Virus record (IMG/VR): IMGVR_UViG_2529292736_000009
Location: 1-11,200 of that record
Direction: 5' to 3' (one strand)
From: a virus
Taxonomy: Duplodnaviria; Heunggongvirae; Uroviricota; Caudoviricetes
DNA length: 11,200 bases
Positions 2,545-3,047 of the stretch are shown here, in pieces; positions within the stretch are counted from its first letter, which is position 1, and each line of letters begins with the position of its first letter. Under the pieces are notes generated by a model, which was not told the DNA's origin, made no database searches, and worked only from the letters and a program-made list of their open reading frames with translations. The translations under genes were made by a program, and so were the position numbers.

Positions 2545-2850
2545 TTACTCTGGTTCTTTGGTCTTGCGACGCTGGAGTTCTTCGCGTGCAACGGTGACAA
2601 GCTGCCCGATTTCTTCCGCTGCTTTGATGCCGATTTGTTCGACCTTAGCCAGGGCATCCAGTGACGACACAAGGGGATTTTCTCCGCTGCCTTCTGCTTG
2701 GCGGCGGGCTATTTCTCCGCGCATGGCGGTTACGATAAATCCGGCATTGCTTTCGCCGTCCAGCTTAACGGATTCCATCCCTTGCATAACATCTAGTGGG
2801 ACTCTGACAGTTGTCAGTTGTGATTTTGCGTTTTTGTTAGCCGTTGCCAT
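2545..2850 (-). CDS. Ribbon-helix-helix (Arc/Mnt/CopG-like) DNA-binding protein, candidate repressor
   Basis: 101 aa; strong SD (AGGAG 8 nt upstream of ATG on the minus strand); N-terminus LTTVRVPLDVMQGMESVKLDGESNAGFIVTAMRGEIARRQ fits the RHH strand-helix-turn-helix pattern (VxVP...GxSxAxxIxxAxR); C-terminal ~55 aa could be an oligomerisation tail as in Mnt. Confidence 0.65.
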   Translation of the reverse strand: MATANKNAKSQLTTVRVPLDVMQGMESVKLDGESNAGFIVTAMRGEIARRQAEGSGENPLVSSLDALAKVEQIGIKAAEEIGQLVTVAREELQRRKTKEPE

Positions 2851-2911
2851 TTCTGAAACTCCTAATCATCGGTGTGTTTCAGTATACACAAAAAAAGAAA
2901 TACAAAAAGCC

Positions 2912-2950
2912 TTGACGTGTGTTTCATGCGCTCATAACATGAAACACACC
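2912..2950 (+). promoter_or_regulatory. Sigma70-like promoter (TTGACG -35 at 2912-2917, 17-bp spacer, TAACAT at 2935-2940) overlapped by a 12-bp inverted repeat operator (GTGTGTTTCATG / CATGAAACACAC, arms 2917-2928 and 2938-2949); a third half-site copy GTGTGTTTCA at 2872-2881
   Basis: Seen directly in the sequence; located between the divergent RHH gene and the rightward operon of small genes leading to rep. Confidence 0.55.
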
Positions 2951-3047
2951 AAAAGAATTGTTGAAATACAAAGAGCAACGCCCCGCAGTGCCGGAAACAC
3001 ATACGGGGCGTCTAACCACCAACGATAGCAAGATTATCGAGGCTGCT

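Follow-up and report, generated by a model that had tools for sequence, protein, structure and literature searches.

We analysed a stretch of 11,200 nucleotides, positions 1 to 11,200 of the IMG/VR virus record IMGVR_UViG_2529292736_000009, to which we refer as the window. The element that it carries is a phage-inducible chromosomal island (PICI) of E. coli, of the EcCICFT073 type: its gene order is that of EcCICFT073 (placed at NC_004431 1377930-1388654), the prototype Gram-negative PICI, which has been studied experimentally (PMC6092414). Between alpA and the replication genes of the window island lies a leftward gene for a small ribbon-helix-helix (RHH) protein, and divergent from it runs a rightward operon, with two promoters and a set of short repeats in the region between (Table 1). 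This region is the subject of the present analysis. An earlier note on the same DNA had described it as an RHH repressor with a three-copy operator, had seen in it the master switch of the island, and had considered it worth attention as an exception. The rightward operon consists of the icd-like gene, three small open reading frames (ORFs), a DUF4222 gene, a gene for a RepA-type AAA_25 helicase and ssb, in that order, which bears out the note's description of an operon of small genes, rep and ssb.

Table 1. Features of the window in and around the RHH region. PR and PL are the rightward and leftward promoters; O1 to O4 are the repeated half-sites.
Feature	Position	Strand	Details
Integrase gene	1-1230		
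alpA, 62 aa	1597..1785	+	Pfam Phage_AlpA, E 1.3e-17; phrog_2790; DNA 97-100% identical to EcCICFT073 alpA
Long open frame, Eta-like, 396 codons	1838..3028	+	ATG 53 nt after alpA; stop 20 nt before icd-like ATG
Two strong terminator-like hairpins	2087..2237	-	2237-2212 and 2114-2087; stems of 10 and 12 pairs, then T-runs
Small basic ORF	2314..2502	-	3' of RHH gene; RKRRRRK motif; phrog_21027, E 1.9e-14; annotated in CFT073
RHH gene, YlcI/YnfO family, 101 aa	2545..2850	-	ATG start
Shine-Dalgarno GGAG of RHH gene	2859..2862	-	8 nt ahead of ATG; read off the sequence
O3 half-site	2871..2881	+	GGTGTGTTTCA; abuts PL -10, covers predicted leftward start
PL -10	2881..2886	-	TATACT; from the sequence; poor -35
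O4 half-site, degenerate	2896..2905	-	7/10; AGAAATACAA, minus strand TTGTATTTCT; in PL spacer/-35 region
PR, rightward early promoter	2912..2940	+	-35 TTGACG 2912-2917, 17-nt spacer, -10 TAACAT 2935-2940
O1 half-site	2917..2928	+	GTGTGTTTCATG; in PR spacer, abutting -35
O2 half-site	2938..2950	-	plus strand CATGAAACACACC; overlaps end of PR -10 and predicted transcription start
Leader hairpin 1	2977..3018	+	stem ACGCCCCG 2978-2985 / CGGGGCGT 3004-3011, then TCTAACCA 3011-3018
Leader hairpin 2	3023..3039	+	CGATA/TATCG; just 5' of icd-like ribosome-binding site
icd-like gene, 68 aa	3048..3254	+	gene 1 of rightward operon; NCBIfam NF033153, E 2.9e-19; RefSeq annotation

The product of the RHH gene is identical to RefSeq WP_000179579.1, which is named as a YlcI/YnfO family protein, and its residues 9-50 match the NCBIfam model of that family, NF041551, with 63.2 bits against a cutoff of 30. 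In PHROGs it belongs to phrog_6522, which has no assigned function. An AlphaFold 2 model built on 30 homologues (mean pLDDT 82) predicts a beta-strand at about residues 10-17 and helices at 19-28 and 35-54, that is, a beta-alpha-alpha unit of about 45 residues, followed by a long helix at 59-98 in which pLDDT reaches 94. A G-x-S/T/N turn between the two helices is a hallmark of the RHH family; the corresponding turn here, D-G-E-S-N-A-G at residues 31-37, contains such a motif, and in the family alignment E33 and A36 are near-invariant. At the level of the monomer, then, the model supports an RHH-type N-terminal domain with a long C-terminal helix, much as the earlier note had supposed when it read the 101-residue ORF as an RHH domain with a C-terminal extension. 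The family alignment is strongly conserved over the C-terminal two thirds of the protein, and residues 3-17 split into discrete variants; in the model these residues would form the arm and strand that read the DNA. A sequence profile search of the PDB with the protein returned no RHH chain. tblastn of the protein against 50,697 phage records gave no match, and hence no evidence for a close homologue in helper phages. Residues ~45-88 (2545-2730) show a weak profile match to the helix-hairpin-helix domain of Hef (1x2i, E 0.0058), a likeness that we set aside because the model gives a continuous helix in the C-terminal part.

The repeats are far too numerous for chance. Exact GTGTGTTTCA occurs in 3 copies in the window against 0.03 expected, and none of 200 shuffles reaches three. 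Two of the copies form an inverted repeat, whose arms are O1 and CATGAAACACAC (2938-2949, within O2), 9 nt apart, and which overlaps the spacer and -10 of PR; the third, O3, lies 45 nt from O1, start to start. In all of this the earlier note was right, as it was about the presence of PR, which scores 9 of 12 consensus matches. Its three-copy operator is correct as regards the three exact copies and falls short as regards the total, since the degenerate O4 brings the number to four sites, arranged as two operators. The O4 position holds clear half-sites in other specificity classes, for example GTGTAAGAC, TGTGATTC and GGTATTCAC.

Across the four half-sites, the spacings from centre to centre are 24, 21 and 23 bp. 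O1 and O2 bracket the spacer, -10 and start of PR, while O3 and O4 bracket the -10 and start of PL, so that the two operators are mirror images of each other. Because O3 abuts the PL -10 and covers the predicted leftward start, we regard it as part of a second operator and not as an orphan, and from this layout of four half-sites in two operators it follows that the RHH protein probably represses its own promoter too. An additional copy of GAAACACA at 2994-3001 was considered as an operator and rejected; it lies in the loop of the leader hairpin, whose AACAC motif persists across all operator classes.

We compared the region with that of related islands, comprising 11 loci from contigs representing one genome per species, 10 loci found by exact-protein look-ups that covered the N-terminal variants, and EcCICFT073 itself. 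All loci share the order int, alpA, an optional Bro-N/AntA gene, and an RHH gene convergent with alpA; divergent from the RHH gene, all have an icd-like gene, small ORFs, DUF4222 and a replicase, the last of four types (AAA_25, DUF927, D5_N/Pox_D5 and Toprim/DUF5906). The region between the starts of the RHH and icd-like genes is about 195 bp long and constant in architecture. For the operators the comparison covers 21 loci, from Escherichia, Salmonella, Yersinia, Enterobacter, Serratia, Erwinia, Xenorhabdus, Photorhabdus and Phytobacter. The PR -35 (TTGAC-) stands 60-64 nt from the RHH start codon in 21 of 21, a TAnnnT-type -10 follows it after 16-18 nt in most, and a leftward TATAAT, TATACT or TATATT is found 30-36 nt from the RHH start in 13. 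The four repeat positions, at roughly 20, 45, 66 and 89 nt from the RHH start, are constant in all 21 loci, each of which has a half-site of its own class at the O3 position. Motifs of the GGAG/GAGG type occur in most relatives at the place equivalent to the Shine-Dalgarno sequence of the window gene.

What changes from locus to locus is the sequence of the half-site, and it changes together with the beta-strand of the RHH protein, in at least nine classes. The strand LTTVRV, found in the window and in Xenorhabdus, Photorhabdus and Serratia, accompanies GTGTGTTTCA; SLTARI accompanies GTGTAAGAC; QLNARF or QINARF, GGTATTCAC or GGGATTCA; KQISIRI, TGTGATTCA; [LVI]KN[IV]R[IV], including LKNIRI, GTGTGTATTT or GTGTGCATTT; MKNIRF, GGTGTGTA; MISTRV, GTGTAGTC; MTTIRV, GTGATATAC or GTGAGATAT; and ALKARV, the strand of EcCICFT073, GTGGGCCACAC. 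In a Mantel test, which leaves the kinship among loci in, operator similarity is correlated with beta-strand identity at r 0.33 (15 of 2000 permutations as high), whereas with C-terminal identity there is no such correlation (r 0.08; 473 of 2000 as high). The repeats thus behave as operators of the RHH protein, as had been proposed: they overlap PR, and they co-vary with the strand across relatives. To judge from these patterns, the RHH protein very probably binds the repeats, and it probably represses PR. On a Xenorhabdus vietnamensis contig (NZ_MUBJ01000038.1), two RHH-operator modules of the same class, L009 and L010 in our numbering, lie a few kb apart in opposite orientation; the pair is of interest for the question whether islands that reside together need different specificities.

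Four evenly spaced sites over some 80 bp could also nucleate a higher-order complex, and the RHH protein might then be mainly an architectural or accessory factor, such as a cofactor of excision, of the replication origin or of packaging in the manner of TraY or Xis, or else an activator of its own promoter. RHH proteins do serve as architectural and accessory factors elsewhere, Mnt in the immI region of P22 activates its own promoter while repressing Pant, and PL, which has no good -35, may need help. We nevertheless consider this explanation highly unlikely, given that the sites occupy the -10 and start regions of both promoters in 21 of 21 loci, a geometry of occlusion, and that they do not track the replicase: the window, L018 and L020 share AAA_25 replicases and differ in their sites. 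For the same reason, namely that one type of replicase occurs with different repeats, we rejected the repeats as replication iterons. Moreover, the origins of PICIs lie downstream of the replicase gene (PMC6092414).

The comparison of the window with EcCICFT073 isolates the variable part. The two are 95-100% identical in DNA from alpA through the end of the small ORF 3' of the RHH gene, and 87-98% identical over the tail of the leader and the icd-like gene; in between, over the RHH gene, the operators and the leader hairpin, identity is only 23-67%. AlpA and the flanks are the same in both islands, while the RHH allele has changed and the repeats have changed with it; they therefore belong to the RHH protein and not to AlpA, and we rejected them as AlpA sites on this ground. 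RHH gene and operators are thus swapped as one cassette, much as lambdoid phages swap their immunity regions. The EcCICFT073 protein (L026 6474-6653) has 59 residues, with the RHH core and the basic C-terminal end kept and the long helix of about 40 residues missing. At PR, the EcCICFT073 operator copies (GTGGGCCACACC) are direct and not inverted.

The RHH gene is nested in a second, opposite frame. The long plus-strand frame of the window runs antisense to the small ORF and to the entire RHH gene, and then crosses both promoters, all operators and the leader. Such a frame is open over 285-473 codons in 18 of 22 loci, and in 14 of the 22 it continues in frame into the icd-like gene; EcCICFT073, where it forms a 428-residue ORF (L026 5767-7053), is one of these. 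Over the 195-nt intergenic stretch, the frame is free of stops in 15 of 22 loci, and the other two plus-strand frames have 2-10 stops each. Of 18 loci examined for it, at least 10 have a Shine-Dalgarno-like motif ahead of the first in-frame ATG. The overlapping frames coincide in their third codon positions, which allows the two to remain open together and makes double coding feasible. The N-terminal part of the long ORF (1838-2313) has a weak Bro-N/antirepressor match (Pfam E 0.014) and matches several Ant PHROGs at E ~1e-5 over residues ~50-85 only; it looks like the remnant of a Bro/AntA gene that is intact at this place in other loci.

An open plus frame across the whole RHH ORF in those 18 loci, with coinciding third codon positions, might suggest that the 101-residue ORF is itself an antisense shadow of the Eta-like ORF, and that the repeats are bound by AlpA, the replicase or some other protein. 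We give this view very little credence. A shadow would hardly match a curated family HMM and yield a confident RHH-type model, nor would it have a conserved start codon and, in most loci, a Shine-Dalgarno sequence, at a fixed distance from the promoters. In addition, the RHH ORF is intact in the 4 loci where the plus frame is closed, EcCICFT073 retains an intact version that is shorter and keeps its C-terminal end, and the N-terminus co-varies with the repeats. It is the plus-frame translation over the RHH gene that looks like junk, being rich in Cys and Ser. Finally, AlpA is near-identical in the window and CFT073, where the repeats differ.

The long frame has a counterpart in satellite phage P4. 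There, the 214-aa eta ORF begins at the end of vis, the alpA homologue, contains the early promoter PLE, seqA and the cI/C4 RNA, and ends as Kil. Judged by its sequence, the long frame of the window is the eta/kil layout of P4; the icd-like protein is a homologue of P4 Kil (28% identity, E 0.005). When the P4 late-promoter transcript is translated through eta, immunity-dependent termination does not take place, and upstream transcription reads into the replication operon (PMC10111431). C4-type immunity RNAs have been reported in some other Gram-negative PICIs (PMC10111431). The Rfam models of the C4, isrK and a1b1 RNAs find nothing in the window at E up to 1 or, at their gathering scores, in 20 related loci that bear the RHH gene, whereas on P4 they score 74.9, 60.8 and 44.1 bits, respectively. 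We therefore rejected a C4/cI-type RNA upstream of the icd-like gene; where P4 and P1 have their immunity RNA, these islands have the RHH cassette. The icd-like protein also matches phrog_6196 and phrog_1743, both labelled 'transcriptional repressor', a label that probably descends from the old annotation of the P4 cI ORF and that, if so inherited, is an artefact of annotation, since the real repressor of P4 is an RNA.

How, then, would an island held by such a repressor be induced? The earlier note had the repressor relieved by a helper-derived signal, and in its strongest form this makes the RHH protein a master repressor like Stl or Rpr, which alone silences the island until a helper-phage protein binds and removes it. 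Its divergent placement over the early promoter does resemble that of stl and rpr in Gram-positive PICIs (PMC6092414), a conserved C-terminal helix beside a variable DNA-reading N-terminus is what one would expect of a surface for a conserved partner, and no inducer of Gram-negative PICIs has yet been identified (PMC6092414). The prototype, however, speaks against it. EcCICFT073 carries the module, and yet overexpression of alpA alone, with no helper, leads to excision and replication, while deletion of alpA blocks induction (PMC6092414); moreover, its RHH protein has no C-terminal helix at all. There is no known helper partner. The conserved open frame from alpA to the operators offers a route that needs no anti-repressor. 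We consequently regard a Stl-like master repressor as unlikely, and the helper-relieved switch of the earlier note is not supported, given the EcCICFT073 results. The note's remark that enterobacterial PICIs are usually described as AlpA-activated agrees with the literature searched, as regards Gram-negative PICIs (PMC6092414), and the alpA gene of the window is the known activator for this island class.

On balance, we favour as reasonably probable a combined reading, in which the RHH protein and its four half-sites are an autoregulated, immunity-type repressor cassette of the early icd-like/replication promoter, and AlpA provides a bypass by read-through. RHH dimers would bind the four half-sites, which lie on roughly one face of the DNA because they are spaced 21-24 bp apart, and the long C-terminal helix would probably link dimers bound two turns apart, as in Mnt. 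PR would drive the icd-like gene, the small genes, DUF4222, the RepA helicase and ssb; with RHH protein bound at O1/O2 and O3/O4, PR would be kept off in the integrated state and after establishment, the icd-like and replication genes would be silent, and the RHH protein would limit its own synthesis at PL. The cassette would in this way functionally replace the C4/cI immunity RNA found upstream of icd/kil in P4 and P1.

Under the same reading, induction would most likely proceed without inactivation of the repressor by a helper protein. The alpA promoter of EcCICFT073 is switched on by helper phages (PMC6092414), and a helper-activated, AlpA-dependent transcript from upstream of alpA would be translated through the long frame, across PR and into the icd-like gene. 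It would reach the replication operon regardless of the repressor, as transcription from the P4 late promoter does by way of eta, and by colliding with transcription of the RHH gene it would interfere with repressor synthesis. Read-through in PICIs is plausible because in Pseudomonas AlpA acts as a processive antiterminator (PMC7969949, PMC9371919). We offer the bypass of the repressor by AlpA read-through as quite possible but short of probable.

More tentatively still, and with some doubt, the reading may be extended to Gram-negative PICIs of the EcCICFT073 type and to the capsid-forming PICIs (cf-PICIs). These islands may have an unnoticed protein immunity, made of exchangeable RHH-operator cassettes, whose specificities, at least nine in number, would be groups of immunity or incompatibility. 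With the repressor gene nested antisense in a translated read-through ORF that joins alpA to the replication operon, the two overlapping genes on opposite strands might form a bistable switch, in which AlpA-driven transcription and translation bypass PR and at the same time silence the repressor by convergent transcription.

Several observations weigh against the favoured reading, or weaken one part of it. As regards the promoters, the window has 4 promoter-like sites where shuffles lead us to expect 4.4; because the consensus match of PR is thus at chance level, its support must come from its conserved position in the 21 loci. PL, which has no recognisable -35, was missed by the consensus promoter scan. 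As regards the fold, no Pfam RHH model reaches its gathering score on the window protein (the top model, PSK_trans_fac, gives 16.2 bits against 28.3, and it weakly matches 23 of 30 homologues, with a best E of 0.0011), and the sole small-protein match of the model in Foldseek is a weak one to Arc, at E 5.6, with nothing significant in the PDB. The EcCICFT073 protein without its long helix implies that this helix is not essential to the core function.

The co-variation, too, has to be read with caution, given the kinship that remains in the Mantel test. The beta-strand alone is insufficient for specificity, since MTTIRV, a conservative change from LTTVRV, has a very different site; and within the window's own class, conservation of the half-sites does not discriminate, because the whole intergenic region is 83% conserved there. 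Lastly, the read-through part is less secure because the long frame is closed in 4 of 22 loci and, in the window, stops 20 nt before the icd-like gene.

Between the operators and the icd-like gene, the leader forms two hairpins that are kept in all specificity classes with compensatory changes. Over the alignment 86.9% of cells are paired and 9 pairs are changed on both sides, a covariation as high as which was seen in 0 of 500 shuffles and which was low in slid controls; hairpin 2 is 100% paired, with 3 of its 4 pairs compensatory. Rfam has no match for the hairpin region, which might be an element of processing, attenuation or translational control. We dropped complementarity of the hairpin loop to the rest of the region, for among the repeat pairs there was only a class-specific coincidence with an operator. 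The invariant-like motif TCTAACCA that follows hairpin 1 occurs only twice in the window (0.2 expected); the other copy, at 1831-1838, comes after a hairpin following alpA and directly precedes the ATG of the long ORF.

On the other side of the RHH gene, the small basic ORF probably shares the leftward transcript and is accessory; the two terminator-like hairpins would, by their sequence, end that transcript. An RHH protein followed by a small basic ORF could be read as a type II antitoxin with its toxin, and the repeats as the operator by which the pair regulates itself. We think this the least probable of the alternatives and rejected it: the downstream ORF is not conserved, for of the loci with gene calls only three, L015, L020 and L022, have a small ORF there, called on the plus strand, and L014, L016-L019, L021 and L023 have none downstream of the RHH gene; the window ORF matches no toxin family, only phrog_21027; and 2 of the 4 sites lie on the divergent early promoter, not on that of the RHH gene. 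RefSeq does not annotate the ORF in a genome identical to the window.

Beyond ssb, the window island continues with genes for a lambda-E-like capsid protein, a decoration-like protein, a second AlpA/Vis-like protein and the small terminase subunit. The genes annotated as lambda E-like major capsid and head decoration lie at 6685-8163, and at 11669-13071 in EcCICFT073 (L026). Portal, protease and large terminase genes are found in neither the window island nor EcCICFT073, so that these are not capsid-forming PICIs as published. The second AlpA/Vis-like gene (8175-8558, plus strand, 127 aa; phrog_2790, E 1.8e-48), between the decoration-like and small terminase genes, is called hypothetical by RefSeq. 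As for other RNAs, the Rfam int-alpA RNA (RF02996) occurs between int and alpA in L003 (7326-7394), L004 (4504-4572), L006 (7224-7291) and L022 (6026-6091) and was not detected in the window, and isrN (RF01396) is found in L011 at 1907-2049.

Since the element is an EcCICFT073-type PICI, its RHH module is common and not, as had been thought, exceptional. Some part or all of window positions 2300-3300, a span that also includes the small ORF and the icd-like gene, is matched in 1739 of 5426 complete E. coli genomes; 304 of the 5426 match at least 80% of it, and many E. coli chromosomes carry it at 100% identity.

RHH repressors that act on divergent promoters are a classical arrangement, and hence the cassette is not categorically new. 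The founding paper on the Gram-negative PICIs calls it 'unclear' whether these have a global repressor and has AlpA as the only known regulator (PMC6092414). In the literature searched, which leaves most subscription journals outside, no later paper assigns a function to the RHH gene, and none describes co-varying specificity cassettes or antisense nesting in an Eta-like frame. What would be new, on the sequence evidence, is the assignment of the repressor role in Gram-negative PICIs, with the prototype among them, to a protein of the unannotated YlcI/YnfO family, together with the co-varying specificity cassettes and the nesting of the repressor gene antisense in an Eta-like read-through frame. 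If the assignment is true, the cassette accounts for the silencing of the toxic icd-like gene and of the replication genes and for the fact that neighbouring islands differ exactly there, and it provides a handle, within EcCICFT073, on the interplay of helper phage, AlpA and repressor. The class-specific pairs of operator and beta-strand are a natural data set for the rules of RHH recognition, and might be a source of orthogonal repressor-operator parts with which to engineer satellites. If confirmed, the antisense nesting in a translated read-through frame would be an unusual regulatory design.

Among known systems, the closest in family are YlcI of DLP12 and YnfO of Qin in E. coli K-12, which share the NF041551 N-terminal domain. 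We take these to be proteins of 64-77 aa, without a long C-terminal helix, encoded near the terminase genes of defective lambdoid prophages, and we know of no operator or role for them. In position, the gene resembles stl of the Staphylococcus aureus pathogenicity islands (SaPIs) and rpr of other Gram-positive PICIs: it stands, in the window and 21 relatives, between the integration module and the replication operon and divergent from the latter. Stl and Rpr are, to our knowledge, not RHH proteins. The presumed role, to keep a phage-inducible island quiescent, is shared (PMC6092414). Unlike Stl and Rpr, which helper proteins inactivate, the module has no known anti-repressor, and induction of the prototype depends on AlpA.

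In design, the nearest parallel is the immI region of P22 with Mnt and Arc, where a small RHH protein with a C-terminal helical extension is likewise encoded divergently; the predicted operator of the window protein, too, lies over an early promoter. In P22, the extension of Mnt serves oligomerisation, and the Mnt operator overlaps the promoter of the anti-immunity operon and controls the promoter of mnt itself. The likeness to Arc comes from the Foldseek match at E 5.6 and is one of fold only. Unlike P22, with its single operator of 17-21 bp, the window has four half-sites two helical turns apart, the operon consists of the icd-like and replication genes and not of arc-ant, and the element is a satellite and not a phage. 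With the immI regions of P1 and P7 (c4 RNA, icd, ant) the window shares a putative immunity determinant directly upstream of an icd-type gene, for an inhibitor of cell division, that heads an operon, but in P1 the determinant is an antisense RNA and the operon that of an antirepressor, as opposed to a predicted protein repressor and a replication operon here.

With P4 the correspondence is one of gene order. Both have an alpA/vis homologue, then a long ORF that holds the early promoter and the immunity determinant, with a Kil/Icd-like sequence at or fused to its end, and then the replication genes. They differ in the nature of the determinant, which in P4 is a C4-type RNA and in the window would be a protein gene on the opposite strand together with DNA operators, the leader being left with a short conserved hairpin only.

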